NCBI GenBank assembly: GCA_965217775.1
Contig: CBDCJH010000002.1
Location: 2,432,001 to 2,496,000 of the forward strand
DNA: 64,000 nucleotides
Reading direction: 5' to 3'
Source: Acidobacteriota bacterium
Lineage (GTDB): Bacteria > Acidobacteriota > UBA6911 > RPQK01 > JAJDTT01
The translations under genes were made by a program, and so were the position numbers. The notes beneath the pieces are model-generated. The model saw only the letters and a list, made by a program, of their open reading frames with translations. It searched no databases and was not told where the DNA came from. Numbering within the stretch: position 1 is the stretch's first letter; every line of letters starts with the position of its first letter. Positions 1,363-63,852 of this stretch are shown in pieces.

Positions 1363-1821
1363 ATGAAAGCTGAACAACGACTTGAAGAATTGAACATCCA
1401 GCTTCCGGACGCACCCCAGCCGGTGGCCATCTATCGCCCGGCGGTCCAGGTCGGAAATCTGTTGTTCGTCTCCGGTCACGGTCCCAATCGGGCCGATGGA
1501 ACCCAGATCACCGGAAGGGTGGGAGTCGAACTGACCGCCGAGGAAGCCAAGGAGGCGGCGCGGGTCACCGGCCTGGCGATCCTCAGCACCGTTCGGAACA
1601 CGTTGGGCTCCCTGGACCGGGTGATCCGGGTGGTGAAGGTTCTGGGAATGGTCAACGCCACACCCGACTTCACGGAGCAGCCGCAGGTCATCAACGGATT
1701 CAGCGAACTCATGATGGAGGTCTTTGGCGACCCGGGCAAAGGCGCGCGCAGCGCCGTGGGGATGGGCTCCCTCCCCGGAAACATCCCCGTTGAGGTGGAG
1801 GCCATTTTCGAGGTCGAGTGA
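1363..1821 (+). CDS. RidA/YjgF/Rid-family protein
   Basis: LFVSGHGP, VVKVLGMVNATPDFTEQPQVINGFSEL, ARSAVGMGSLP; AAGGAG RBS before ATG 1363. Confidence 0.9.
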   Translation: MKAEQRLEELNIQLPDAPQPVAIYRPAVQVGNLLFVSGHGPNRADGTQITGRVGVELTAEEAKEAARVTGLAILSTVRNTLGSLDRVIRVVKVLGMVNATPDFTEQPQVINGFSELMMEVFGDPGKGARSAVGMGSLPGNIPVEVEAIFEVE

Positions 1822-1890
1822 TTCGGGACCAAGCGCAAACCACGCCGCATCCCAGAGGATAGGCGCCGCCACTGGCTCGACCGGGCGGTC

Positions 1891-2775
1891 TCAGGGGTCG
1901 GCGACGACCTGCCCGTAGTTGATGGTGGTGTCGATAATTCCGATTTCGACCCGCCGATTCTTGGCCCGGGCCTCGGGCGTGGCCCCCGGCAACAGCGGGT
2001 TGGCCTTGCCGTGGCCCTTGGTGCTCACGATGCCGGGATCGATGCCGGCGTCCACGAGATAGTCTTGAACCGCCTTGGCTCGCCGCTCAGACAGCCTCTG
2101 GTTGTATTCGCTGCTACCGATGTCGTCGGTGTGCCCGTGAATCTGGACCCGGTATCCCGTGGAGGTCAGGAGAACACCGGCGATCCGGCTGAGCAGCTCC
2201 CGGTTCTCGGGACGCAGCGTCGCTTTGTCGAAGTCGAACTCGACGGCGTCGCTGCCCAGGTTCATCACCACGCCCAGAGCCGTCCGGCGGGTTTCGACGA
2301 TCCCGCTCAAGACTTCGTGCAGACGATTCAGCTCGCGTTCCCGTTCCGCGCGAATCCGCTCTGACTCTTCCCGGGCGGCGCGGGCATCCTCTTGGGCGAC
2401 GTGAGCCTCTTTCTTGGCGGCTTCCGCCTGCCGTCGAGCATCAGCCCGGTCTCGTTCGGCTTGGCGCCGGGCCGAGTCGGCCGCGTCCTTTCCGCGGGCT
2501 GCTTCCAGGGCAATGTGCTTCGCCTCCTGGGCCCGGTCGATGGCTTGGCCAGTCCGCTTCTCTACCTGTTCCAGGCGCTGGAGCACCGTCTGCAAAGTCT
2601 CGTTCGCCTCGGTGGTCTGCCGTTCCAGGGCGTTCAACTGATTACAACCCCGGTAGATGAAGATGCCGGCCATCAGAGCCAATATCAGGATGGCGCCGAT
2701 CGCCATCTGGGCCGGCGAAGCTCGTCCGTTTGTGCTTCCGGTGGAAACCTCGAAGTTCGGTTTTCGTCGAGCCAT
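1891..2775 (-). CDS. OmpA-family protein with N-terminal TM helix and coiled coil
   Basis: FDFDKATL, GHTDDIGSSEYNQRLSERRA, NRRVEI. Confidence 0.9.
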   Translation of the reverse strand: MARRKPNFEVSTGSTNGRASPAQMAIGAILILALMAGIFIYRGCNQLNALERQTTEANETLQTVLQRLEQVEKRTGQAIDRAQEAKHIALEAARGKDAADSARRQAERDRADARRQAEAAKKEAHVAQEDARAAREESERIRAERERELNRLHEVLSGIVETRRTALGVVMNLGSDAVEFDFDKATLRPENRELLSRIAGVLLTSTGYRVQIHGHTDDIGSSEYNQRLSERRAKAVQDYLVDAGIDPGIVSTKGHGKANPLLPGATPEARAKNRRVEIGIIDTTINYGQVVADP

Positions 2776-2904
2776 TGGAATTTTAGTTTAACAAACATTT
2801 TCGCCTGGACACGCTTCGGAGTTCGGCGGCTGGAGAGAGGACTTTCCGGTCGCCCACTCCCTGCCGCGTCCTGTTGCTCGTCGCTTTATTGCAGCACTGG
2901 AGAT

Positions 2905-2984
2905 CGGCGGCAAGAAAGCCGCCGGTCCCAATCGGCGACAAGAAAGTCGCCGCTCCCGTTCGGCGACAAGAAAGTCGCCGCTCC
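2905..2984. repeat. REP-like palindrome array, 3 units of 28 bp (CGGCGRCAAGAAAGYCGCCGSTCC)
   Basis: Three tandem hairpin units in the intergenic region; same family at 33512-33652, 35343-35413 and 43786-43813. Confidence 0.85.
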
Positions 2985-3029
2985 TGATCTTGCCCTTGCT
3001 CCCACGGATTAGTAGGCTTCACTCCTCAT

Positions 3030-3371
3030 ATGGACACGGCGGACACTCGATCCACGCCCGAAGACCGCTACGACCCGGTGTTTCTCCACTCCCGGCGGGA
3101 GGCCATCCTCATCGCCGGGGCGTGGGCGCTGGGCCTGGTGTGGGCCGTCCCCTACTGCTATCTGAACGGCTACGGTCTGCCGCCGGGAGAGGTCGAAACC
3201 ACGCTCGGCGTTCCCACCTGGCTCCTCTGGGGCATCCTGGTCCCCTGGATCGCCGCTGACCTGTTCACGGCCTGGTTCTGCTTCTTCTACTTTGTCGAAG
3301 ACGACCTGGGGGAGGAGCGGGCCGAGGCTGAGGGCGCGAACGGGCGAATTCGGACCGAGGCGGCGTCTTGA
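3030..3371 (+). CDS. DUF997 (YhdT-like) small membrane protein
   Basis: Two TM segments, 'HSRREA', 'GVPTW', 'EDDLGEE'; overlaps the downstream SSS symporter as in yhdT-panF. Confidence 0.8.
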   Translation: MDTADTRSTPEDRYDPVFLHSRREAILIAGAWALGLVWAVPYCYLNGYGLPPGEVETTLGVPTWLLWGILVPWIAADLFTAWFCFFYFVEDDLGEERAEAEGANGRIRTEAAS

Positions 3372-5311
3372 CCGACCTGGTGCCCTCCCCCTCCTACGGA
3401 TCGAACGCGGCCCTGGTCACCTTCCTCATCTACACCTTGGGCGTCCTGTTCCTGGCCTGGATGTCCAACCGTCTGCGCAAGACCAAGAGCTTCCTCTCCG
3501 AGTACTTCCTGGGGAGCCGGAGTCTGGGGGTCTGGGCCTTCGCCCTCACCTTCGCCGCCACCAGCGCGTCCGGAGGGAGCTTCACCGGCTTCCCCTCCAA
3601 GATCTACACCCACGGCTGGATCCTGGGGCTCTGGATCGGCAGCTACATCGTGGTGCCCATCTGCGGGATGGGCTTGTTGGGAAAACGGATCAATCAGATC
3701 GCCCGCCGGACGGGGGCCATCACCGTCCCGGACGTTCTTCGCGACCGGTTCGAGAGCGCGGGATTCGGACTGCTGTGCACCGTCATGATCATCTTCTTCA
3801 TGTCGGTGAATCTGGTCGCCCAGTTCAAGTCGGGCAGCCTGATCCTCAAGACCCTTCTCCTGGACGTCCCCTTCTTCCGCAGCTCGGTGCTGAGCGTCGC
3901 CGAGGTATCCCAGGGACTGAGCTTGACCGAGGGGGTCGACCCGGCCTACCTGCTCTGCCTGCTGACTTTCGCCGTGGCCGTGATCCTCTACACCACCTAC
4001 GGCGGCTTTCATGCGGTGGTGTGGACCGACGTGATGCAGGGCGTGGTCATGGTGACGGGCGTGGTCATCATGCTCCCGCTGGCTCTCATTGCCGTGGGCG
4101 GCCTGGATTCGGCGACCCAGCGTCTGGGCCGCATGGTCCCGCCCCGCTTGGGCGTCACCGACCTGGAGCTGTCCGCACCCAGCCCGGAGGACACCATCAT
4201 CCGTTCGGGAGTCTGGTTGACGGCGTCCGATGAGAAAGGCGAGCCGCGCCTCCTGCGAATCAGCCAGGAAGCGGTGATCCCCCGGGGATCCACCCAGATA
4301 CGGGAGATCCAGGCAGTGGAGATCACGTCGGAGGAAGAAGCGGCGAGTATCCGAGAGCAACTGGCGGCAGGGACTCTTCCGTCAGCCCCGCCGTCCGTCA
4401 GCGCCACGCGGATCGCCACCGAACCCTACCGCTCCGGCGCCGACAGTCCCGGCGTATACGTCAGCGGGCCCGGTCCGGACCGCTACAGCGACCTGGGGTT
4501 CCTCCCTCTGAGCCTGGCCTTCTCCTTCTTCTTCATGTGGGCCATCTCGGGAACGGGCCAGCCCAGCACCATGGTCCGCCTGATGGCCTTCAAGGGCTCC
4601 GGCACCTTGAAGCGATCCATCTTCACCGTGGCCATCTACTATTCCCTGATCTACTTCCCGCTGGTGATCATCTTCTGTTGCGCCCGCATCTTCCTGCCCG
4701 GCATGGAGCTGGAGTCGGACCGGATCATGCCGGCGACCGCCGTCTTCCTCAGCAGCTTCGCCGGCGCACCCTGGATGGCGGGGATCCTGGTGGCGGCTCC
4801 TTTCGCCGCCGTCATGTCCACGGTGGACAGCTTCCTGCTGGTCATCTCCTCCGCCCTGGTTCGGGACATCTACCAGCGCAACATCAACCCCCAGGCGCCG
4901 GAGCGCACCATCAAGAGGATGAGCTACGTCTTTACCTTCGTGGTCGGCTTCGCGGCGGTGATCGGAGCGGTGAACCCGCCCCAGTTCCTGCAGGACATCA
5001 TCGTTTACACGGGGAGCGGGCTCGCCTCCTGTTTCCTGGCCCCCGTCATCTTGGGACTCTACTGGCCGCGAATCAACACCTGGGGAGCCATGTCGGGCAT
5101 GTTGGGCGGCTTCCTGTTTCACCTGTCGCTCTACGGAGCCGGCTATCTCGCCTACGGGCGTTTCTCCTCCTACCGGCTCCTGGGGATCGATCCGGTGATC
5201 TGGGGCCTGGCGATTTCCTTCTTCCTGGTGATTGCGGTCAGCAAGGCGACGCCACCGCCGCCCCGCCATCTGGTCCGGAGGTACTTTTTCAAGCAAAAGC
5301 CGGGAGCTTGA
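3368..5311 (+). CDS. Sodium:solute symporter (PanF-like)
   Basis: EYFLGSRSLG, ATSASGGSFTGFP, YTTYGGFHAVVWTDVMQG, AAVMSTVDSFLL. Confidence 0.9.
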   Translation: MTDLVPSPSYGSNAALVTFLIYTLGVLFLAWMSNRLRKTKSFLSEYFLGSRSLGVWAFALTFAATSASGGSFTGFPSKIYTHGWILGLWIGSYIVVPICGMGLLGKRINQIARRTGAITVPDVLRDRFESAGFGLLCTVMIIFFMSVNLVAQFKSGSLILKTLLLDVPFFRSSVLSVAEVSQGLSLTEGVDPAYLLCLLTFAVAVILYTTYGGFHAVVWTDVMQGVVMVTGVVIMLPLALIAVGGLDSATQRLGRMVPPRLGVTDLELSAPSPEDTIIRSGVWLTASDEKGEPRLLRISQEAVIPRGSTQIREIQAVEITSEEEAASIREQLAAGTLPSAPPSVSATRIATEPYRSGADSPGVYVSGPGPDRYSDLGFLPLSLAFSFFFMWAISGTGQPSTMVRLMAFKGSGTLKRSIFTVAIYYSLIYFPLVIIFCCARIFLPGMELESDRIMPATAVFLSSFAGAPWMAGILVAAPFAAVMSTVDSFLLVISSALVRDIYQRNINPQAPERTIKRMSYVFTFVVGFAAVIGAVNPPQFLQDIIVYTGSGLASCFLAPVILGLYWPRINTWGAMSGMLGGFLFHLSLYGAGYLAYGRFSSYRLLGIDPVIWGLAISFFLVIAVSKATPPPPRHLVRRYFFKQKPGA

Positions 5312-45713: not shown

Positions 45714-45832
45714 CACGGGACACGGACATCCTGAAAACTCTAAAGGGTGGTCCGGACTGAACTACAGGCTTGCCCAACGTGTGTACAACCGCCGAGCCAT
45801 CGACTCCGTCGATTCCCGTATTCACCCTTTAG

Positions 45833-45990
45833 CAGTCCGTGGTGAAAGTCCCGCGAGCACCGAGACCGTTCCTGCGCCCGCCGGACAAGGCGCGATTCGG
45901 GAGCATACCGGGAGTATGTGATCGAATCGCAACGCAGTCCGCCGGGATGCAGGGACGGTCGGATGCCGTGGCGACTTTTGCCACGGGCTG
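45833..45990 (-). mobile_element. 158-bp MITE, copy 2 (TSD TTAG)
   Basis: TTAG|CAGTCCGTGG...CCACGGGCTG|TTAG. Confidence 0.92.
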
Positions 45991-46022
45991 TTAGGCCGCA
46001 CCTACCCTCCACGCCAAGCCGG

Positions 46023-47171: not shown

Positions 47172-48482
47172 TCATGGCTTTTTCTGCAGGAGGCCCTCAG
47201 CAGCGCGCTGCCGCTCTTGGCTCCCCTCCTCTTCCAATCTCTGAAACCGTTCCAGTGAGACGCGAGCATCTTCCATCATCCCCAGCTTCCGGTAGACCTG
47301 GGCCAACTGGTAGTGGGGTTGTGGATCCCCGGGACCCAGTGCGATGGCCCGGTGGAGGGCGCCTTCGGCGGCCCGCAGTCGGCCCTTGGCCTCGTAGGCC
47401 GAAGCCAGAGCCACGTGGGCGTCCGGGAGCCTGACATCCACCTGCAACGCCCTCTCCAGGTGACGAATCGCCTGGTCGAACTGCTGCCGCGAGTTTTTGA
47501 TGATTCCCAATTCCAGGTTGACGATAGGGTGATGCGGATCGATCTTCAGCTCCTTCCGCAGCGCCGGCTCAGCCTTGTCGTATTGCCCCAGACCGAAGTA
47601 GATGTCCCCCAGGGCGAAGTTGACTCCGGGCGCGTCCGGGTTCAGGGCGACCGCTTGCTCGTACGCCTGCGCCGCCTCGTTCAGGTGTCCCCGGGCGGCG
47701 AAAAACTCGGCTCTGAGCTGATGGGACCGGAAGGAATTGGGTTCGACCTCGTCGATCCGGGCGATGGTCCGGTTGAAGCCGTCATCGCCGCCTTTCGTCA
47801 GATAAGCCTGGGCCAGCGTCTGCAAGGCTTCCAACTCCCGAGGATGGCTGCGGGTCAACGCCTCCAGATGTTCGATGCTCTCATCCACCCGTCCCAGCGC
47901 CAGGAAGCAGACGCCCAGATAGACCTGAGCCTTGACGTTCTTCGGGTCACGGGAGATCGCCTCCTGAAGGGCCCCTGCGGCCTCCGGGTACCGGTGGAGG
48001 CCGAAATAGGCGCGCCCCAGATAAAAATGGGCGTCGGGGAGATCGGGGTCGAGGGTCAGGGCACTGTGGATCGCATCGACAGCCGGGCCCAACCTTCCCT
48101 GGTATTGGTAGACCAGCCCCAACCGGACCATGATCTCAACAGTCCGTGGTGAAAGTCGCGCGAGCACCGAGACCGTTCCTGCGCCCGCCGGACAAGGCGC
48201 GATGAGGGAGCATACCGGGAGTATGTGACCGAGTCGCAACGCAGTCCGCCGGGATGCAGGGACGGTCGAATGCCGTGACGACTTTTGCCACGGGCTGTCA
48301 ACCCGTCCCGGCTGTAGTTCCAGGATACTGGTGTAGGACTTCTCGGCGGCTGGCCAATCGCCCCTCGCCTCCGCCTCCACGGCGGTTTGCAGTTGCCTCT
48401 GAACCGGGGTTTCCTGTCCAGCGGCCGATCCGGCCAAGGCCATCAGCGGAATCGTCGAGAGCAATAGCCAGAGACTCACCAT
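47172..48482 (-). CDS. TPR protein carrying an in-frame 54-codon MITE insertion
   Basis: Signal peptide and TPRs; the first TPR is interrupted by SPWQKSSRH...LSPRTV. Confidence 0.88.
   Translation of the reverse strand: MVSLWLLLSTIPLMALAGSAAGQETPVQRQLQTAVEAEARGDWPAAEKSYTSILELQPGRVDSPWQKSSRHSTVPASRRTALRLGHILPVCSLIAPCPAGAGTVSVLARLSPRTVEIMVRLGLVYQYQGRLGPAVDAIHSALTLDPDLPDAHFYLGRAYFGLHRYPEAAGALQEAISRDPKNVKAQVYLGVCFLALGRVDESIEHLEALTRSHPRELEALQTLAQAYLTKGGDDGFNRTIARIDEVEPNSFRSHQLRAEFFAARGHLNEAAQAYEQAVALNPDAPGVNFALGDIYFGLGQYDKAEPALRKELKIDPHHPIVNLELGIIKNSRQQFDQAIRHLERALQVDVRLPDAHVALASAYEAKGRLRAAEGALHRAIALGPGDPQPHYQLAQVYRKLGMMEDARVSLERFQRLEEEGSQERQRAAEGLLQKKP
48140..48297 (-). mobile_element. 158-bp MITE, copy 3 (TSD TCAA), inside the TPR gene
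   Basis: TCAA at 48136-48139 and 48298-48301. Confidence 0.93.
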
Positions 48483-49199: not shown

Positions 49200-49361
49200 C
49201 CGTTGACGTCGGCAACCGGGAATTTACCCAGGGTCAAGTAAACAACCTAGGAGCCTGCGCCGCAGTGCGGCAGCCCGTAGGGTTGTGTCTAGAGAAGTAC
49301 GTTTGGCCTTTGTGAGAATTCCTGATCGGCGATGCTTCTGTTCATCCGTTCCAGTGTTTGA

Positions 49362-49519
49362 CAGTCCGTGGTGAAAGTCCCGCGAGCACCGAGACCGTTC
49401 CTGCGCCCGCCGGACAAGGCGCGATTCGGGTGCATACCGGGAGTATGTGCCCGAATCGCAACGCAGTCCGCCGGGATGCAGGGACGGTCGAATGCCGTGA
49501 CGACTTTTGCCACGGGCTG
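49362..49519 (-). mobile_element. 158-bp MITE, copy 4 (TSD TTGA)
   Basis: TTGA|CAGTCC...GGGCTG|TTGA. Confidence 0.92.
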
Positions 49520-49580
49520 TTGAAGCCGCGCAAACGTATTGCGCCGCCACCTAACCAGTTCGCCAAGACAATTTCAGTTT

Positions 49581-50435: not shown

Positions 50436-51224
50436 GTGAAGGACAATCGGGTACGTCAAAAGATCATCGCGGGCGAAGCGGCCGTCGGATGCTTTCTGGG
50501 ACTGGGCAGTCCCTCGGTGGCCGAGTTGCTGGCCTACTCGGGGTACGAATGGCTGCTGGTCGAAACCGAGCACAACGCCCTGGATTCGGCTCAGGTCGAG
50601 CACATGCTCATGGCCATCGACGGTTCCGGCGCCATGCCCATGGTCCGGGTCCCGCCCTCGGACCTGTTCGCCATACAGAAGGCTCTGGATATAGGCGCCA
50701 TGGGGATCATCGTCCCCATGGTGAAGACCGTGGAGGAGGCGGAGGCGGTGGTGGCCGCCACCCGTTATCCTCCGGAAGGAAAGCGAGGCTTCGGGCCTCT
50801 GCGGGCGTCCCGCTACACCCTCGACTACGAGGACTACCTGGAACGGGCCAACCGGAACATCCTGGTGGGCCTGCTGCTGGAGACCGCCGAGGCAGTGGAG
50901 GACCTGGAGCGGATCGCTTCGGTGCCCGGGGTCGACCTGCTCTACATGGGCATGTGGGACCTGTCGCTGGCTCTGGGCGTGGACCCCAGGCGTCAGCCGA
51001 ATCCCGAGACGGACGCCGTGATCGACAAGGCTCTGCAGGTGGGCCGGGACACCGGCGTGGCCATCGGCATCGGCGTCGGGAGCCCGGAAGACCTGGCGCA
51101 CCGCCTGGAGCAGGGATTCACCTTCCTGGGCTACGGGAGCGACTACAGCCTTCTGCTCGGCGGGGCCAAGTCCGCCTTGGAAACCTTTCGGGCCTCCCAA
51201 TCCGGGAGGCCGGAGAGCGGCTGA
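50436..51224 (+). CDS. HpcH/HpaI aldolase family protein
   Basis: ETEH, ALDIGAMGIIVP, RYPPEGKRG, LLET, GxxDLS. Confidence 0.9.
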   Translation: MKDNRVRQKIIAGEAAVGCFLGLGSPSVAELLAYSGYEWLLVETEHNALDSAQVEHMLMAIDGSGAMPMVRVPPSDLFAIQKALDIGAMGIIVPMVKTVEEAEAVVAATRYPPEGKRGFGPLRASRYTLDYEDYLERANRNILVGLLLETAEAVEDLERIASVPGVDLLYMGMWDLSLALGVDPRRQPNPETDAVIDKALQVGRDTGVAIGIGVGSPEDLAHRLEQGFTFLGYGSDYSLLLGGAKSALETFRASQSGRPESG

Positions 51225-51226
51225 CA
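51094..51226 (+). repeat. 133-bp direct repeat copy 1 (3' end of the aldolase gene)
   Basis: Matches 53035-53167 with 6 mismatches by eye. Confidence 0.92.
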
Positions 51227-51261
51227 TCCCGGAACCGGCGGACGCACATAGTGACGCCTAA

Positions 51262-51420
51262 CAGTCCGTGGTGAAAGTCCCGCGAGCACCGAGACCGGTC
51301 CTGCGCCCGCCGGACAAGGCACAACGGAGGGAGTATACCGGGAGGATGTGACCGAGTCGCAACGCAGTCCGCCGGGATGCAGGGACGGTCGAATGCCGCG
51401 ACGACTTTTGCCACGGGCTG
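51262..51420 (-). mobile_element. MITE copy 5 (159 bp, diverged; flanks CTAA/TTAA)
   Basis: Same TIRs; central hairpin altered; imperfect TSD. Confidence 0.9.
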
Positions 51421-51449
51421 TTAAGAACGAAACCCGCCCCATCGTTGGA

Positions 51450-51709
51450 TCACGTCGCCGAACGTCGCCAGTGCCGCATGGTTCGAGGACTCATGCCGAT
51501 GATCTCGTCAGCCTGGATCCAGTTGGTCTGCCCACAATTTGCCCCGTGTACGACGTCCTGCACCTTCATCAACCGCTCCACGGCCCGCGGTGAAACCAGC
51601 ACGATGCCCGACGTCTCAACGTCGGGGAAGAATGATCATCCTGATCCCACGCCTGCCGGATCGGACAGGTCACGTGCTGGCGGGACCGGATATTTTGCCT
51701 ACTGACGAC
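51450..51709 (-). pseudogene. Remnant of an IS end and transposase N-terminal HTH (ISNCY/IS481-like)
   Basis: Minus frame AVERLMKVQDVV...WIQADEIIGMSPRTMRHWRR then stop; IS-end-like CGGACAGGTCACGTG..CCGGATATTTT..CTACTGAC. Confidence 0.55.
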
Positions 51710-51726
51710 CGAGGCAACTCGTTTCG

Positions 51727-51766
51727 TTGACGATACGGCTGGAAATTAGGTACAATACTTTGTACA
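51727..51766 (+). promoter_or_regulatory. Sigma70 promoter with GTACA palindromic operator
   Basis: TTGACG-N18-TACAAT; GGTACA and TGTACA 12 bp apart overlap the -10; GGAGGT RBS downstream. Confidence 0.7.
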
Positions 51767-51788
51767 TTATTGGTGGAGGTGATGCAAC

Positions 51789-52265
51789 GTGGCTGAGGAA
51801 TACATTCCCATAAGCAAGGCGCGGGCCGAGATTGCCAAATGCGCCAACTTAGCTCAAACGCAGATGCGGCGCTATGTGTTAACAACTCAGGGTGACCCAA
51901 AGGTCGTCTTGCTCGGATACGAAGATTACCGTACCCTGAAAGCGACTGCCAGTCTTGCGCGCCGCCCAGAAGTCATCAGGAACATCCGCAATGGAATGGC
52001 TCATATTCGTGAGGGCAAGACGATCCCGCTCGCAGAGTTTGAACGGCAAGCGAAATTCGCCGCTAAACAAGCCCGAGACAGGGTTTTCATCGTCACAGAT
52101 CCATCTGGACACTTCTCACACCAGGACATAGCGTCCGCTTTGGAAGAAATGGGTCTAACGTTGAGTGTTCAAAAGCCTGCAGAGCCCGTTCAGTCGTACT
52201 CAATGGATTTGTTTGCGGAAAGGCCAGCCGCTAGCGCCAAGTCAAGACAAGCTGGCAATAAATGA
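51789..52265 (+). CDS. Phd/YefM-family antitoxin with C-terminal extension
   Basis: IPISKARAEI...YVLTTQGDPKVVLLGYEDYRTLKAT...GMAHIREGKTIPL. Confidence 0.8.
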   Translation: MAEEYIPISKARAEIAKCANLAQTQMRRYVLTTQGDPKVVLLGYEDYRTLKATASLARRPEVIRNIRNGMAHIREGKTIPLAEFERQAKFAAKQARDRVFIVTDPSGHFSHQDIASALEEMGLTLSVQKPAEPVQSYSMDLFAERPAASAKSRQAGNK

Positions 52266-52553
52266 GACAGTTGCTCCGAGTAACTGTACACAAAAACCTA
52301 GAAACACCAAGTATAGCCCCAACAACGAGTAGGCACGCCTTTCATCGTTGACCTTGCCAAGCCGAGATGCGATCTCAGCGGAACGGACGACCTCACCTCG
52401 ACCCCTTCGGACCAGCACCCAGACAATACGAATCCCTCGCTTAGCGAAGCCCGGCAACGAAAACGGATGGTATGATCTGGCCATCATCAGCGCGCCCATG
52501 ATTCCGAGGGTCGCACCCGAAATCGAAAAGAAATATCCCAGAGATGCCAACAC
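52242..52553 (-). CDS. Small two-TM hypothetical membrane protein
   Basis: Hydrophobic N- and C-terminal segments; directly downstream of the RelE-like ORF. Confidence 0.5.
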   Translation of the reverse strand: MLASLGYFFSISGATLGIMGALMMARSYHPFSLPGFAKRGIRIVWVLVRRGRGEVVRSAEIASRLGKVNDERRAYSLLGLYLVFLGFCVQLLGATVSFIASLS

Positions 52554-52574
52554 TTTTATCTGCTCTTTCCCATT

Positions 52575-52817
52575 TTAAGGAAGGTAAATTTCGACGACTT
52601 CCACCGCGTCACTTGTTCTGTATAGTATTGCGAATCTCCCCACATCCAAGCGATAAAGTTGATGCCCCAGTATCGGGTAGCCACTGCGGGATTGCGTTGC
52701 CACACTCCTGAGAGCTGCGCAGACGGAATCGATTTCTTGATCGCTGGGACGGAATTGAATGAACTGCTCAAAGGCACTTTCCGCAACCGTGACCTCTTTG
52801 ACTGAACGTGATGCCAT
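52575..52817 (-). CDS. RelE/ParE-like small protein
   Basis: VTVAESAFEQF...LYRLDVGRFAILY...VEVVEI pattern. Confidence 0.55.
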   Translation of the reverse strand: MASRSVKEVTVAESAFEQFIQFRPSDQEIDSVCAALRSVATQSRSGYPILGHQLYRLDVGRFAILYRTSDAVEVVEIYLP

Positions 52818-53034
52818 ACTTTTCCTACATAGGGTAATGTTTCGAATGCATTCAGTACAATCGGTGTCCAGGACCCATTCGCTTGTTTTCGGCGCTGGCG
52901 TTCAAGGCCAAGCCAGAGTCCGAAGCACGGACCCGGACGATTGAATTTATCGCCGCTCAATCTCCGAAAGCGTCACCCCAAAGGGGGTGCTGGCCCACAT
53001 CGAGTCTGGCTGGACCGACCCGGGCTCGGGTGAA

Positions 53035-53167
53035 TGGCGCACCGGCTGGAGCAGGGGTTCATCTTCCTGGGCTACGGGAGCGACTACAGCCTTCTGCTCG
53101 GCGGGGCCAAGTCCGCCCTGGAAACCTTTCGGGCCTCCCAATCCGGGAAGGCGGAGAGCGGCTGACA
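53035..53167 (+). repeat. 133-bp direct repeat copy 2 (displaced aldolase 3' end including stop)
   Basis: Encodes AHRLEQGFIFLGYGSDYSLLLGGAKSALETFRASQSGKAESG*. Confidence 0.92.
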
Positions 53168-53181
53168 CCGCGCCAAGCGAT

Positions 53182-55003: not shown

Positions 55004-56130
55004 AGGAGCGGCTCCCCGCTCTCGATCTGCCGGATGAACTCGTCCACGTTCTCCCTCGTCACCAGGACCACGCCGGTGTCGGTGAAGGGTGTAGATTCGA
55101 TGCCGCGGCGGAATTTGACCAGACTGTCGACGCCGGAATAGCCCATCTTGGCGGGAAACTGGGCGACCATGGCGTCCAGCTCGCCACGCTTGACCGCCTC
55201 CAGGTCCCCCAACCCCGCTTTGCCGATGGAACCGCGGCCCACTACCATCAGATCCTCGCCCAGGTTCTTTCCGAAGGCCCCGGCCGCCTGGGTGGCGCAG
55301 AGAACCGCGGGACCACCGAAGATGTAGAGACCGGCCAGATCGGGATGCGCCGTCAGCAGATCGGTGGTGGCGTTGAAGGACTGGTCGCAGAAGGGAACTC
55401 CCAGCGGAGACCCCACCATTTCCAGGTCGGGATACTTGCGCAGGCCTTCCACGAAACCGTTCATGATTTCCCGGCAGGGCAGAATGCTGGGCGGACAGGC
55501 GATGACGCCGACCTTCCCTCGATCCGAAAGGCGGTCGGCCAGCCGGTCGGCGGCCACGGTGCCGCAAAGGACATTGTCGGTGGCGGCGAAAGTGACGATA
55601 TCCCCCTCGGCGATCCCGGTGTCGATGACGGTGATGGGAATCCCGGCCTGGTTCACCTTCGACACGGCAGGCGACAGGGCGTTGGAATCGCAGGGCGCCA
55701 GCACGATGCCGTCCACTTCCAACTGAATCATGTTCTCCACGATCTGGACCTGATCCACGACATGAGTCTCGCTCTTGGCGGCGTGCAACAGCAGTTCCAC
55801 CCCCAGCTCCTCTGCCGCCCGTTGGGCGCCGTCGATGGCGTCCAGCCAGAAGGGATCGGTGTAGGACTTGGAGATGAAGGCGATCCTCAGCCGTCCGTCG
55901 CGGGAGGGATCGGGAACCGGCGCCGCGCAGGCCCAGAGCAGCAGCAGCGGGAGCAGGATCGCTAGCAGTCCGTGGGAAAAGTCCCATGAGCACCGAGACC
56001 GTTCCTGCGCCCGCCGGACAAGGCGCGATGAGGGAGCGTATGTGACCGAGTCGTAACGCAGTCCGCCGGGATGCAGGGACGGTCGAATGCCGTGACGACT
56101 TTTTCCACGGGCTGCTTGGCATCGGGTCAT
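55000..56130 (-). CDS. Sugar ABC substrate-binding lipoprotein (RbsB-like) with in-frame MITE in the signal peptide
   Basis: DPFW, VDGIVLAP, AGIPITVID, ATDN, VAQFP..MG, DTG; lipobox LWAC. Confidence 0.88.
   Translation of the reverse strand: MTRCQAARGKSRHGIRPSLHPGGLRYDSVTYAPSSRLVRRAQERSRCSWDFSHGLLAILLPLLLLWACAAPVPDPSRDGRLRIAFISKSYTDPFWLDAIDGAQRAAEELGVELLLHAAKSETHVVDQVQIVENMIQLEVDGIVLAPCDSNALSPAVSKVNQAGIPITVIDTGIAEGDIVTFAATDNVLCGTVAADRLADRLSDRGKVGVIACPPSILPCREIMNGFVEGLRKYPDLEMVGSPLGVPFCDQSFNATTDLLTAHPDLAGLYIFGGPAVLCATQAAGAFGKNLGEDLMVVGRGSIGKAGLGDLEAVKRGELDAMVAQFPAKMGYSGVDSLVKFRRGIESTPFTDTGVVLVTRENVDEFIRQIESGEPLL
55966..56114 (-). mobile_element. MITE copy 6 (149 bp, 9-bp internal deletion; flanks CTAG/CTTG)
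   Basis: Lacks ATACCGGGA of the central hairpin; 149+4=153 bp=51 codons. Confidence 0.9.
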
Positions 56131-58800: not shown

Positions 58801-58846
58801 GTTTCCTCCGCTCGGCTCCGGTTGGTATTCGTTGGCCTGCTATTAA

Positions 58847-59004
58847 CAGCCCGTGGCAAAAGTCATCACGGCATTCGACCGTCCCTGCATCCCGGCGGAC
58901 GGCGTTGCGATTCGGGCACATACTCCCGGTATGCACCCGAATCGCGCCTTGTCCGGCGGGCGCAGGAACGGTCTCGGTGCTCGCGGGACTTTCACCACGG
59001 ACTG
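58847..59004 (+). mobile_element. 158-bp MITE, copy 7 (TSD TTAA)
   Basis: TTAA|CAGCCC...GGACTG|TTAA. Confidence 0.92.
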
Positions 59005-59045
59005 TTAAATCCCAAAATCCCGGATGTCGTTTGCGCGATCCCGGT

Positions 59046-60213: not shown

Positions 60214-61938
60214 CTATCTCGGCTCGTCCCATTTTTCCCCGCTGCCTTCCCTGAGCGTGACGTAACGGCCGGTTTCGATGCCGGTCCACTCCTCCACCAG
60301 ACCACTCGGCCAGTGGGCCCGAACTCGGATCATGTCGGCGGAATCGTCCAATCCCACGAGGACTCGGGGATCGTTGGATGAGGCATAGCTGCCGTCGGTC
60401 CGGACGCGGCGCCAGAGCGTCGGCTTGCCCTCCCTGAACACACCGACCCAGGTTCCCAAGGCGTCCCGATTGCTTTCACGGCCGACAAATCGCAGCCCCA
60501 GCCACCGATTCTCCGTACCGACACGGTTGATCAGCAGCCGGGTGCGTCCGTTGTTGTTGAAGAGCAGCACGTCCGTGTCCCCGTCGTTGTCCACGTCGCC
60601 GAAGGCCGCGCCGCGGCTGACTTCCGAGAGCCGGAACACCGATCCCGCCTCACCGGTCACTTCCTGGAATCGCCCGTCGCCCAGGTTGCGAAAGAGCTGG
60701 TTCGGCTGATGCAGAGGATACGGATCGCCCCGTCTCGCCAGGACCTCGATGGTTCTGACCTCCCCATTGGCGGCGAACAAGTCCAGCCAGCCGTCGTTGT
60801 CGTAGTCGAAGAATCGCGTGCCGAAGGCGGTGAACGGGAGGCTGGAGACGGCCAGGTTGGCTTCCAATGAGGCGTCCTTGAAAAATCCGGTGCCGTCATT
60901 CGTGTAGAGGGTGTTCTTCTCGCTCTTGAGATGGGTCGTGAAGAGGTCTTCGTCGCCGTCGTTGTCGAAATCCGCCGCGTCCACTCCCATGCTGGACTCG
61001 GCCATCCCGTCCCGGTTGAAGGCGGCGCCGGCCAGCAGCGACTCGTTCACGAAGGTCCCGTCCTTCCGGTTGATCCAGAGATCGTTGGGTCTCTGGTCGT
61101 TGGCCACGTAGACGTCCGGCCATCCGTCGGAGTTCAGGTCGGCCGCCACCACGCCCAACGCTCCGTGGTATTCCCTCGAGATCTGGCTCCTGGCCGACAC
61201 GTCCTCGAAGCTTCCGTCCCGCCGGTTTCGATAAAGGCGATTGGGTACCGGCTCATAACCCATGGGGCCACAGTAGTCGACCGCTCCGCTGGGAGCGTGG
61301 CACAGCTTCTGGTTGGAGAACCTGAAATCGACGTAGTTGCCCAGGAAGAGGTCGAGCCAACCGTCCCGGTCGTAGTCCAGGAAAGCCGCACTCACCCCCC
61401 ATCTCCCGTCGCCGGTGCCGGTCCGCGCGGTGACGTCCATGAAGGTGCCGTCCCCCCGGTTCCGATACATCTGATTGGGACCGAAGTTCAAGACGTAGAG
61501 GTCGACCCAGCCGTCGTTGTCGAAGTCCGCGGCAGCCGCGCCCATCCCGTAGCCCAGCGCCCGAATCCCGCTGGAGGCGGTGACGTCGGTAAAGCGGACC
61601 CGGCGGGTTCCGTCCGGTTGCACGATCAGATCGTTGCGGTAGAGCCGGTCCATGGGAGCCGGCCCAGCCCGGGAAACGCCGGTGCCGCCTGACGGTTCGC
61701 CCTCCCCCAGCAGATGCCCCTGGACCACGTAGAGGTCCAGGTCGCCGTCGTTGTCGTAGTCGAACAGGGCGCCGCCTCCGCCCACCATCTCGCAGTAGTA
61801 GAACTTGCCCGACATCCCGTTGAAGTGGACGAAGTCGAGGCCCGCCTGGTCCGTTTCGTCGGAGAAAATGCCGTTTGTGTCGTCTTGGGACTGCGAGTAT
61901 CCGGTGAGAAATCCGGCGTGAATCAGCAGGATCAGCAA
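60214..61938 (-). CDS. CRTAC1-family protein (FG-GAP + ASPIC/UnbV)
   Basis: DYDNDGDLDL repeats, SRGAAFGDVDNDG, DGSYASSNDPRVLVGL; start uncertain. Confidence 0.9.
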   Translation of the reverse strand: MLILLIHAGFLTGYSQSQDDTNGIFSDETDQAGLDFVHFNGMSGKFYYCEMVGGGGALFDYDNDGDLDLYVVQGHLLGEGEPSGGTGVSRAGPAPMDRLYRNDLIVQPDGTRRVRFTDVTASSGIRALGYGMGAAAADFDNDGWVDLYVLNFGPNQMYRNRGDGTFMDVTARTGTGDGRWGVSAAFLDYDRDGWLDLFLGNYVDFRFSNQKLCHAPSGAVDYCGPMGYEPVPNRLYRNRRDGSFEDVSARSQISREYHGALGVVAADLNSDGWPDVYVANDQRPNDLWINRKDGTFVNESLLAGAAFNRDGMAESSMGVDAADFDNDGDEDLFTTHLKSEKNTLYTNDGTGFFKDASLEANLAVSSLPFTAFGTRFFDYDNDGWLDLFAANGEVRTIEVLARRGDPYPLHQPNQLFRNLGDGRFQEVTGEAGSVFRLSEVSRGAAFGDVDNDGDTDVLLFNNNGRTRLLINRVGTENRWLGLRFVGRESNRDALGTWVGVFREGKPTLWRRVRTDGSYASSNDPRVLVGLDDSADMIRVRAHWPSGLVEEWTGIETGRYVTLREGSGEKWDEPR

Positions 61939-61967
61939 AACGAGCTGCAGAGTCGACCTCCGCGAAT

Positions 61968-62021
61968 TTGGCCTCAGGACTCCGCCTCGCCGGCGGATTC
62001 GATGGATTCCTTGAGGGTCTG
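61968..62021 (-). repeat. Displaced copy of the E2 gene 3' end (54 bp)
   Basis: Encodes QTLKESIESAGEAES* followed by GGCCAA, versus QTLKESIESAAAES* followed by GGCCAA at 62680-62730. Confidence 0.88.
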
Positions 62022-62276
62022 CTATGTATCTTTTGCGCCAAGCTCCTCAGCGTATTGTTCTATCGGAGTCGCACCTTCCTCGCGTGAGCGGTCCTCAAGA
62101 AACTTCATGAACACATCGCTATTGCCAAGTTCGGTCGCTTCGCGCTCGAAGCCATCAGCCTCTTCCAAAACGAAGCTAGTGCCATCCTTCGAGATTAGCA
62201 AAACGACTTCACGGCGAGCGATGGCGAGGAGATCGTCCACCGAACGTGCTTTCTCATCTAGGTTTATGGTCTTCAT
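62022..62276 (-). CDS. Putative antitoxin (Phd-like)
   Basis: MKTINL...DDLLAIARREVVLL...FMKFLEDR; ATGA-coupled to the upstream toxin. Confidence 0.7.
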   Translation of the reverse strand: MKTINLDEKARSVDDLLAIARREVVLLISKDGTSFVLEEADGFEREATELGNSDVFMKFLEDRSREEGATPIEQYAEELGAKDT

Positions 62277-62566
62277 AGATCAACCTTCCTTCCTCGGATG
62301 AATAGCACATTGTGTTGTTTGTTGCCCACCGCGACAACTTTTACCTTGTTATCTTCTTCAATCATATAGAAGACACGAAATCTATCAATACGTAGCTCCC
62401 AAGGAGAAATCGGATTCCGTCGTAAAGGTTTCTTTCTCCTTGTCCGGACCTCTGCATCCACTCCAAGGTGAGCCATTATTCCTGCGGCAATGAGGCGCTG
62501 GTCGTATACGTCACAATGGCCCAGGTCTTGCTTTGCACTTTCCGTCAACGAGATCCTATACTCCAT
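62273..62566 (-). CDS. RelE/ParE-family toxin
   Basis: YRISLTESAKQDL...KPLR.N...WELRIDRFRVFY...VVAVG.K.HN. Confidence 0.85.
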   Translation of the reverse strand: MEYRISLTESAKQDLGHCDVYDQRLIAAGIMAHLGVDAEVRTRRKKPLRRNPISPWELRIDRFRVFYMIEEDNKVKVVAVGNKQHNVLFIRGRKVDL

Positions 62567-62685
62567 TATCGGCTCGATTCAACGTCAGATCGTGAGTTAG
62601 TTCGACGGTGACGACATCACGTCGGACGGAGTGAGGCCTTGCTGCGCGATGTCGAGCACCGAGTTCCACATCGGTGACGTTGGCC

Positions 62686-63852
62686 TCAGGACTCCGCGGC
62701 GGCGGATTCGATGGACTCCTTGAGGGTCTGTAGGAACTGGGCCGCCACCGCGCCGTCCACGGCACGGTGATCGGCGTTCACGGTCACCTGCATCCTGGAA
62801 CGGACGGCGACCTGCCCGCCCACCACCACCGGCACGGAGCGGACGGTCCCTACCGAGAGGATCCCGACTTCGGGCGGATTCAGGATGGAGGTGAACTGCT
62901 CGATGCCGTACATGCCCAGGTTGGAGACCGAGAAGGTGCTTCCCTTCATCTCGTCAGGCTGGAGCCTCCGCTTTCGGGATCGATCGGCCAGATCCGCCAG
63001 TTCTGTCTGGATCCGTTCGATTCCCTTCTGCTCCACGTTCCGCAGAACCGGAACCACGAGCCCGTCTTCCAGAGAGACGGCGACCCCAAGATGAACCGCC
63101 CTGAACTCGCGGATCTCCTCCTCCACCAGATGGGCGTTCAGACGGGGATGCTTCAAGAGAGCATCGGCCACCGCTTTCAGCAGGCAGGGCGTGAGACGGC
63201 GGCGTGGGGTCGTCCGGGCCTGCAGGTCCGTGACGTCCAGCGAGAGGGAGAGAGAAATGTGGGGGGCGTTCCGGTAGCTGTCGCTGGTGCGACGGGCGAT
63301 GGAGCGCCGCGTTCCCTGGATGGGAATAACGCGATATTCCAATTCCGCAGCGGCGTCTCTTTTGGAAGCCGCCTCGTGCGCCTCAAGATCCCGGGGAAGG
63401 ATGGCGCCCTTGGGGCCGGATCCGGTGACGGTGGCCAGATCGATGCCCAACTTGCGGGCCATCTTCCTGGCTCGGGGGGACGCCCGTACCCTTCCCCGCC
63501 GGGAGCGAGTGCGGGTTCCGGTCTTTGTACCGCGTGCGCGGCGGGCGGCTGCGGGGCGAGTGGACGGTCGCTGCTTTCCGGGCGCACCGGCCGCCGGCGA
63601 GGGGGCTGCTTCACCTTCGCTCAGGAGCCACGCGATCCCCTGCCCCACCGGGATCTCGTCCCCCTCCCGGGCCATGACGTTGGACAGGACCCCGGATCCG
63701 GCGGCTTCGATCTCCATGACCGCCTTGTCGGTCTCGATCTCCATCAGCGGCTCGCCCCGGGCCACGAACTCCCCCTCGGACTTGAGCCAACGCACCAGGA
63801 CGCCCTGCTCCTGGGACATCTCCAGCGCAGGCATGATCACTTCAGTGGCCAC
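62686..63852 (-). CDS. 2-oxoacid/acetoin dehydrogenase E2 (dihydrolipoamide acyltransferase)
   Basis: Lipoyl EIETDKA, E3-binding ASPRARKMA, TFSVSNLG, DHRAVDG. Confidence 0.93.
   Translation of the reverse strand: MATEVIMPALEMSQEQGVLVRWLKSEGEFVARGEPLMEIETDKAVMEIEAAGSGVLSNVMAREGDEIPVGQGIAWLLSEGEAAPSPAAGAPGKQRPSTRPAAARRARGTKTGTRTRSRRGRVRASPRARKMARKLGIDLATVTGSGPKGAILPRDLEAHEAASKRDAAAELEYRVIPIQGTRRSIARRTSDSYRNAPHISLSLSLDVTDLQARTTPRRRLTPCLLKAVADALLKHPRLNAHLVEEEIREFRAVHLGVAVSLEDGLVVPVLRNVEQKGIERIQTELADLADRSRKRRLQPDEMKGSTFSVSNLGMYGIEQFTSILNPPEVGILSVGTVRSVPVVVGGQVAVRSRMQVTVNADHRAVDGAVAAQFLQTLKESIESAAAES

Follow-up and report, generated by a model that had tools for sequence, protein, structure and literature searches.

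A toxin-antitoxin islet between two copies of the 3' end of an E2 acyltransferase gene in an Acidobacteriota genome

The window analysed here is a 64-kb stretch of the genome of an Acidobacteriota bacterium (contig CBDCJH010000002.1 of assembly GCA_965217775.1, positions 2,432,001 to 2,496,000), in which a toxin-antitoxin (TA) pair has been inserted behind a gene for an E2 protein (2-oxoacid dehydrogenase acyltransferase). The 3' end of the E2 gene is duplicated on the two sides of the insert, the inserted DNA is foreign in composition, both genes of the pair are intact, and related genomes have the site empty. This locus, the E2 islet, is a real TA islet with a known kind of scar, insertion with long target duplication; to our knowledge, neither this class of cargo nor this host group has been reported for it. 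The pattern as such is not new, and what the initial annotation of the window, made from the DNA alone, proposed about it is partly supported. Coordinates without a prefix are positions in the window, and those with the prefix C2 are contig positions of the same genome (G000). The conclusions do not depend on the unpublished genome G016.

All features of the locus lie on the minus strand. The E2 gene (62686..63852) is an intact open reading frame (ORF) with the Pfam domains Biotin_lipoyl, E3_binding and 2-oxoacid_dh (1.4e-68), and its 3' end in use lies in repeat copy A (62674..62730, with a possible extension to 62665). Downstream of copy A are a 107-bp cargo spacer (62567..62673), a toxin gene of the RelE/ParE superfamily (62273..62566; 97 aa), an antitoxin gene (62022..62276; 84 aa) and repeat copy B (61968..62021), a displaced, non-functional E2 3' end that runs on into native downstream DNA. 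A terminator-like hairpin, recognised by a consensus match only, lies just 3' of copy B (61947..61963), and beyond it is an FG-GAP/ASPIC repeat gene (60214..61938; Pfam), the native downstream neighbour of E2.

The duplicated segment comprises the 45 final coding nucleotides of E2, the stop codon and six further nucleotides (54 bp), and copy B lies 709-712 bp downstream of copy A with 91% identity. The C-terminus of the working gene reads ...QTLKESIESAAAES and that of the displaced copy ...QTLKESIESAGEAES, each followed by the stop codon. The best local score of the direct repeat (61500-63200) was 40, compared with a mean of 11.3 (sd 1.15) and a maximum of 16 in 200 dinucleotide shuffles, and the repeat has exactly two copies across the 6.43-Mb genome; the layout first proposed from the sequence, a TA pair between two copies of the E2 3' end, was confirmed. 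Weak similarity (9 of 15 positions) continues 3' of the repeat for about 15 nt, to 61953/62665. Between the copies are 658 bp with a GC content of 0.503, compared with 0.642 in the flanks, in agreement with the toxin-first, AT-richer insert of about 660 bp described initially. The antitoxin stop codon (TAG, 62022-62024) does touch copy B, and its first base can be assigned to either. The duplication is unlikely to be an assembly artefact because contigs of another run reproduced both junctions without difference.

Contigs from three runs (X1, X4 and X6) covered the toxin segment at a depth of 10-25 and its flanks at 44-110, which hints at a minority haplotype, these depths not being shares of cells. 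The contigs of RNA run X15 spanned 61200-62187 and 62700 onward and did not include the toxin segment, a result that is uninformative on expression. A scan limited to sigma-70-like promoters found none upstream of the toxin gene, the sole match being inside it, and no Rfam family reached its gathering score in 40000-64000. The displaced E2 tail (QTLKESIESAGEAES, 61977-62021) stands in frame behind the antitoxin TAG, so that read-through would add 15 residues to the antitoxin; this frame is probably a coincidence with a one-in-three chance.

The cargo of the E2 islet consists of the two ORFs, both intact, co-oriented and overlapping by 4 nt with the toxin first, and has no room for more genes. 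The toxin matched PF05016 (ParE_toxin) with 25.3 bits against a cut-off of 23, which is marginal but consistent, and reached 18 bits with the RelE_StbE model TIGR02385, under its cut-off of 27.9. Its homologues, which form 82 clusters, carry PF05016, and several are named RelE/ParE at the source. The antitoxin had no match in Pfam or NCBIfam and has 59 homologous clusters. A modelled toxin-antitoxin complex scored 0.72, compared with 0.00 for the best control, a prediction that may lean on solved RelE/ParE complexes; the 0.72 mark was attained by 116 of 157 solved complexes and by 2 of 215 mismatched pairs. The runs of the model shared at least 95% of contacts with a partner pLDDT (predicted local distance difference test) of at least 78, and in the model the C-terminal half of the antitoxin (residues 41-82) wraps the toxin. 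Binding of the antitoxin to the toxin is supported by this model rather than demonstrated.

Empty sites, which the initial annotation had made a test of its proposal, were found in seven of the eight congeners, where the FG-GAP gene follows E2 directly and the repeat segment is single-copy. In the eighth congener (G006), copy B is identical to that of G000 and is followed by 200 bp from the 3' part of the antitoxin gene, by some 190 bp of unrelated DNA that includes a GC-rich hairpin, and by copy A; the toxin gene is missing, and only GATTCAACGT of the 107-bp spacer is common to the two genomes. Block by block, G006 and G000 are about 92-98% identical. A 100-bp patch at the end of the E2 gene (62680-62779) is 88% identical and the next 300 bp are 99-100% identical, which is suggestive of a different history of the gene end beside the cargo in the two genomes; it is only suggestive because G000 shows a mosaic identity profile throughout when compared with G006 and G007.

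Of 137 genomes of the class, five have the toxin, one of them being G000, and the eight other congeners all lack it. The closest DNA relative of the cassette, 79% identical, is in a genome of another family (G020), where the toxin gene is truncated and the cassette adjoins an ORF resembling RepA with three iteron-like repeats, together with a VapBC pair. In G012 an insertion sequence splits the toxin gene, the antitoxin gene is intact, and the cassette lies upstream of mraZ. More distant relatives of the cassette were detected at three loci in assembled-genome contigs (68%, 37% and 42% identity) and at five in metagenome contigs (39-46%), and none of these relatives is close enough to fix the upstream boundary of the cargo. 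The low GC content, the patchy distribution of the toxin and the RepA/iteron context in G020 together indicate that the cargo is foreign and of plasmid or mobile-element ancestry. TA pairs usually decay toxin first. This is how the cassette of the E2 islet decays in G006, G020 and G012, the antitoxin gene being kept alone beside a broken toxin gene in the latter two.

The initial annotation had also proposed that the design recurs at a second, unrelated target within 12 kb, and this is so. In islet 1, 12 kb from the E2 islet, the functional 3' end of an HpcH/HpaI aldolase gene (51094..51231, plus strand) and its displaced counterpart (53035..53172, plus strand) are 94% identical and bracket a cargo of 1.8 kb (51232..53034) that holds a Phd/YefM-like antitoxin gene (51789..52265, plus strand), a 158-nt element resembling a miniature inverted-repeat transposable element (MITE; 51258-51422) and unassigned ORFs. 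Islet 1 was missing from all five congeners tested.

We then searched the whole genome for local direct repeats of 30-450 nt with at least 78% identity, a spacing of 150-8000 bp, exactly two genomic copies and a cargo GC content at least 0.03 under that of the flanks (below, islet 2 is the E2 islet). The ORFs came from a heuristic based on third-position GC content (GC3) and not from a real gene caller, so the classes are approximate. The scan yielded 29 rows: 18 independent events with a repeat that contains the 3' end of a gene running outward from the cargo, two with a repeat that contains a 5' end, two paralogue pairs, three sub-alignments of other rows and four ambiguous rows. The generality anticipated for repeated gene 3' ends was thus borne out, with 18 cases at 3' ends and two at 5' ends in this genome, and one more in the Terriglobia genome described below. 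The repeats of the 18 islets are 54 to 389 nt long and the smallest cargos measure 446-874 bp. In 10 of the 18, the repeat ends at most 9 nt from the stop codon, a clustering much tighter than viability alone requires.

Five of the 18 cargos contain TA families, as judged from ORFs selected greedily and without overlap: the RelE/ParE toxin and antitoxin of the E2 islet, Phd/YefM in islet 1, MqsA at C2:345822, a Gp49/HigB-like toxin followed by a helix-turn-helix (HTH) antitoxin at C2:4365761 (the HigBA islet, 874 bp and of the same design as the E2 islet), and two ParE toxins at C2:5112291. The others carry AAA_16/TPR ATPases, a fragment of a Type ISP restriction gene, transposase fragments or nothing recognisable. 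The expected enrichment of TA genes was found, in that 3 of the 13 ParE-family matches of the genome fall in cargos totalling 39 kb, or 0.6% of the genome; two of these three matches stem from one tandem duplication. That duplication (L023, C2 5112520-5113665) is a perfect, 100% identical tandem repeat of about 593 bp that doubles a ParE toxin gene within its cargo, and beside it is a 313-aa ORF with a weak match to a Y1 (IS200-like) transposase.

The same toxin and antitoxin families as in the E2 islet occur together in a Terriglobia metagenome-assembled genome (CAVVEL010000003.1, locus L040). There the toxin is 68% identical and belongs to a 2.1-kb cargo; on either side of this cargo stands a 62-nt copy (94% identity between the two) of the 3' end of a gene encoding 419 aa. 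At the same locus (1719-3901) a second scar is nested in this cargo, where two 62-nt copies of the 5' end of a DUF4926 gene enclose an ORF of 186 aa that has a CopG-antitoxin domain. No flanking repeat of 24 nt or more was found within about 1.5 kb of the toxin homologues in G048, G015, G088 and G020, nor were there flanking repeats at the G012 copy.

The MITE-like element of islet 1 has a terminal stem and recurs in the window (45828-45992, 48135-48299, 49357-49521, 51258-51422, 55952-56116 and 58845-59009) and throughout the genome, with 272 BLAST matches, most of them full length, and no Rfam match. One copy starts 34 nt past the functional aldolase end, and copies abut or lie inside at least six other islets. 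In islet L022 (C2 5037910-5040205) the repeat consists of a gene 3' end, intergenic DNA and the first 23 nt of tRNA-Ser(tga); a MITE truncates the cargo-side copy, and the far copy runs on into an uninterrupted tRNA gene. Some 1.5 kb of inserted DNA interrupts four MITE copies near element position 79/86 (C2 1656567/1658154, 3134807/3136486, 5760147/5761892 and 6039542/6041287), which points to an insertion sequence with the MITE as its target.

A nearby site-specific integrase had been named at the outset as a finding that would speak against a general route. In a genome-wide search limited to tyrosine recombinases, the genome gave 26 matches to the family PF00589, of which 24 are over the cut-off; none lies in the 64-kb window. 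The match closest to the window ends at C2:2417271, which is 15 kb ahead of its first position and some 77 kb from the E2 islet. Pfam found no mobility domain among the scanned ORFs of the E2 cargo, and genome positions together with Pfam scans placed no PF00589 match in any of the 18 cargos of the 3'-end type. The motif expected to be common to the repeat boundaries did not emerge: in a comparison of exact words, which a degenerate motif could escape, the 18 repeats had no more 8- to 10-mers in common than random genome segments do. Four trios of tyrosine recombinase genes are present (C2 2396814-2399265, 1689242-1691639, 2807131-2809498 and 3539583-3541983), one of them 1.7 kb outside the islet at C2:3532482, a site at which the gene end is duplicated in G006 as well. 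An imperfect palindrome of 23 nt, GAGAAGGTGACTGTCCCCTTCTC (GAGAAGG..CCTTCTC), occurs in clusters (for example C2 1523868-1527341, 2110349-2122562 and 4391335-4425796); its 10-nt core has 136 exact matches on C2, mostly in this context, and the palindrome is within about 25 nt of the joint between cargo and displaced copy in 5 of the 18 islets. As a cause of islets 1 and 2 it was rejected, since the window contains no match to it even when 3 mismatches are allowed.

The differences between repeat copies were examined for what they record of the insertion. Copies A and B of the E2 repeat differ by one synonymous substitution (GAG/GAA), one non-synonymous substitution (GCC/GGC) and a one-codon indel. 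The initial annotation gave the first and the last of these, missed the non-synonymous one, and took the indel as a sign of two once-functional alleles. That interpretation did not hold: the long form is present in the displaced copy and in all eight congeners, and the indel is private to the active copy of G000. A +GCG variant occurs on the toxin-bearing haplotype in contigs of two public runs. The indel is best read as slippage in the GCN run of the active copy and not as an allele marker, and the argument from two alleles is weak for the E2 islet because the indel is a polymorphic triplet slip. Apart from the indel, the differences between the E2 copies are polymorphisms also found among congeners, as are the bases just after the stop codon; three of four differences are of this shared kind. 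In islet 1, all six differences are polymorphisms segregating among five congeners; the displaced copy and its flank are G006-like, and the functional copy is G007-like at three of four informative sites.

A site-by-site comparison with congeners covered nine islets, namely islet 1 and eight longer ones. In the eight longer islets most sites of difference are interleaved and private to a single copy. The numbers of sites at which relatives match the functional and the displaced copy were 4/11, 14/4, 2/6, 10/7, 17/9, 19/18, 12/9 and 10/3; these mixed counts do not decide the mechanism and fit old events followed by divergence in place. Along the repeat of the HigBA islet (C2:4365761) the sites read FFFFFF and then DDDD (F, functional copy; D, displaced copy), the single such case among the nine. 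The functional copies of L016 and L026 depart from the relatives at more sites than the displaced copies do (11 vs 4 and 6 vs 2).

That insertion swaps the C-terminus of the host protein, as had been proposed, was shown for three islets other than the E2 islet, where the allele argument is weak. At C2:925447 the working gene ends in ...MAWRRAR, and the displaced copy and six congeners retain a longer native tail; four of the six tails match ...RRT(R/K/S)(R/S)Y(D/G/K) at the stop codon, and those of G008 and G004 are different and longer. The working gene at C2:4581863 is 8 residues shorter than the displaced copy, and at C2:3532482 the last 7 residues are unlike those of the displaced copy and of seven congeners.

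We infer that host recombination or repair, and not a dedicated recombinase, joined the incoming DNA to the E2 gene, and we assign a probability of about 0.5 to this joining model taken together with the observed parts of the event. Homology within E2 or at its end would have anchored one side of the incoming DNA; the other side would have been attached by an illegitimate joint within the E2 3' end, at 3 nt of microhomology (TGC) beside the antitoxin stop. With the insertion, 54 bp of the target, perhaps about 70, ended up on both sides, leaving E2 with a complete end and the displaced end as a fossil ahead of the native downstream sequence. Ordinary homologous recombination would later have reshuffled the locus among congeners, with loss of the toxin in the G006 lineage, and TA addiction plausibly slows clean loss by deletion between the repeats. 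The proposed joint follows from the cassette in G020, homology to which begins at TGCTATGTATCT, the first three bases of which also fit the target (...GGGTCTGC followed by AG in the empty sites).

A process of this kind has a precedent in homology-facilitated illegitimate recombination, which combines one homologous anchor with a joint at a few bases of microhomology and involves no mobile-element enzyme. It was reportedly described in natural transformation by de Vries and Wackernagel in 2002 and by Prudhomme et al. in 2002. The likeness lies in the presence of ComEC in this genome and in the 3-nt microhomology proposed above; in contrast to the E2 islet, the experimental events reportedly delete recipient DNA for the most part and do not duplicate it.

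Several points weigh against joining by host machinery. No joining step has been observed, and the microhomology is just 3 nt long and deduced from a homologue that is 79% identical. Runs of perfect identity between the E2 copies do not exceed 18 nt, which is short for RecA, and because no Ku-family gene turned up in this genome (97.9% complete), classical end joining is unlikely. That repeat ends cluster at stop codons suits an evolved mimic of the gene end, such as an integrase-type attachment (att) site, or selection in favour of read-through expression, at least as well. The private, interleaved differences of the eight longer islets date the events as old and are silent on how they arose, and the shared polymorphisms in islets 1 and 2 fit import together with a donor gene end as well as later recombination.

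Import with a donor gene end is the core of an alternative, the route of the initial annotation in a Campbell form, in which a cargo with one gene-end copy departs from a donor in circular form, or as linear DNA flanked by repeats, and enters a related genome by a single crossover in the homologous gene end. The crossover would be carried out by RecA or by a recombinase acting in trans and would leave a functional and a displaced end of mixed ancestry. Such mixed ancestry is what islet 1 displays, with congener polymorphisms at all differing sites and its two copies resembling different relatives, and the polymorphisms shared by the E2 copies point the same way. The F-then-D run of the HigBA islet is the reciprocal pattern expected of a single crossover, yet as a lone case among nine islets it could be due to chance. 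The more divergent functional copies of L016 and L026 agree with this alternative; the differences in L015, L075, L073 and L076 are private and interleaved instead of being arranged in blocks. The clustering at stop codons and the 18-to-2 bias toward 3' ends speak for Campbell-type and mimic models alike, or for selection in favour of read-through expression. Furuta et al. (PMC2853133) have put forward a similar cycle for restriction-modification (RM) units, which would invade, be amplified and be released. However, no circle or excision product was seen, the same cassettes occur elsewhere without flanking repeats (G020, G012, G048, G015 and G088, and a relative of the HigBA cassette in G005), and the first duplication is left unexplained. 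We regard entry by a single crossover as rather unlikely.

The same observations bear on the general route that the initial annotation had drawn from its two examples, the spread of TA cassettes together with flanking gene 3' ends. Its generality stood, as did the empty sites and the want of an integrase. Spread with the flanking gene end is, by comparison, only a deduction: the relatives of the cassette in G020, G012, G048, G015 and G088 lack tight repeats, and the private, interleaved substitutions in most of the longer islets fit divergence in place equally well.

Integrase-borne islands, integrative and mobilizable elements (IMEs) and cis-mobilizable elements (CIMEs) integrate into the 3' ends of tRNA and protein genes, and their cargo often includes TA pairs. 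The islets resemble them in that the repeats equal the 3' end of the target, the gene is restored by the element-side copy and the cargo is accessory. The E2 islet could on this basis be the remnant of a tyrosine-recombinase island, its replacement gene end being the att site and deletions having spared the addiction-protected TA pair. A 3'-end target, a restored gene and a repeat ending at the stop codon are the classic att design, and the genome has about 20 or more tyrosine recombinase genes, including the four trios, one of which lies near C2:3532482. Unlike such islands, the E2 insert has no recombinase in or beside it, the comparison of exact words gave no shared core motif, and its cargo is just 658 bp. 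The lack of PF00589 matches in all 18 cargos and the small size of some of them speak against a remnant. The antitoxin stop abuts the repeat with no spare nucleotide, where a deletion would have had to stop exactly, and none of the eight congeners has a larger element at the E2 site. A decayed island is a poor candidate in our judgement. A staggered cut by a transposase-like or nuclease activity, with fill-in giving copies identical at birth, is very improbable. The mostly private (7/0 or 0/7), interleaved differences of four longer islets are those predicted by divergence in place, and the repeat lengths vary as in the published cases (PMC2853133), but the cargos have no terminal inverted repeats or transposase, random cuts would not be expected to give the 18-to-2 bias and the stop-codon clustering, and the copies of islets 1 and 2 differ at congener-polymorphic sites.

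Insertion with long target duplication was reportedly described for RM gene complexes by Nobusato et al. in 2000 (Gene 259:99). RM units insert with target duplications of 46 to about 420 bp and no other mobile element, according to Furuta, Abe and Kobayashi (2010; PMC2853133). Their hosts are there said to be mostly naturally competent, and two of the repeats, in Haemophilus, overlap gene 3' ends; the mechanism is given as unknown, with DNA breakage by the restriction enzyme suggested as a common factor. Mruk and Kobayashi (2014; PMC3874152) ascribe this mode of insertion to RM systems only. An insertion is assigned to the class by Furuta et al. on the basis of an empty site in a related genome that aligns in both flanks, a duplication of more than 30 bp whose sequence is single in the empty site, an insert of less than 20 kb without mobility genes, and the presence of R and M genes. 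The E2 islet has the empty site, the duplication and a small insert without mobility genes, and it has no R and M genes. It carries a RelE/ParE toxin and an antitoxin and therefore stands outside the RM set as the same kind of event with other cargo.

The likeness extends to an addiction-type pair, a deviant GC content, a duplication of unique target DNA far longer than that made by a transposon (54 bp here), the lack of an integrase or transposase, and empty sites; some of the published repeats also overlap gene 3' ends. The E2 islet departs from the RM cases in its type II TA cargo and its Acidobacteriota host, in the number of events (about 18 in one genome) and in the 18-to-2 bias toward 3' ends, and its copies are less alike than those of several published RM pairs. 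A double-strand break by a restriction enzyme cannot apply to a toxin directed at mRNA or gyrase. The occurrence of the scar with a cargo that is not a nuclease speaks against DNA breaks made by the cargo as its general cause. In the literature searched, outside which many subscription papers lay, no description of this scar with TA cargo was found.

Chromosomal integrons contain minimal TA cassettes of about 0.7 kb that consist of the gene pair alone and are inserted behind a transcribed gene in one orientation. The E2 islet is likewise a minimal TA-only insert behind a gene. Unlike them, it has no attC-like site or integron integrase, and its flanks are copies of the host gene end.

How TA and small defence modules arrive at ordinary chromosomal sites without a mobile-element enzyme is an old open question, and the scar of long target duplication has been known since 2000 without a mechanism. 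This genus offers a usable data set, with about 18 events in one genome and mostly complete congener genomes with empty sites. The strong bias toward gene 3' ends and the three changed C-termini make the competing models comparable without settling between them. A speculative extension, which we think unlikely, is that gene-end cassettes are a mobile form free of a recombinase, in which addiction and defence modules travel with a conserved gene 3' end. They would exit by recombination between the copies and enter related genomes anew through a single crossover at the homologous end, replacing the C-terminus of the host protein and placing the cargo upstream of the terminator. If true, gene-end cassettes would account for the 18-to-2 bias, for the position of repeat ends at stop codons, for copies of mixed ancestry in islets 1 and 2, and for the scar at L040.

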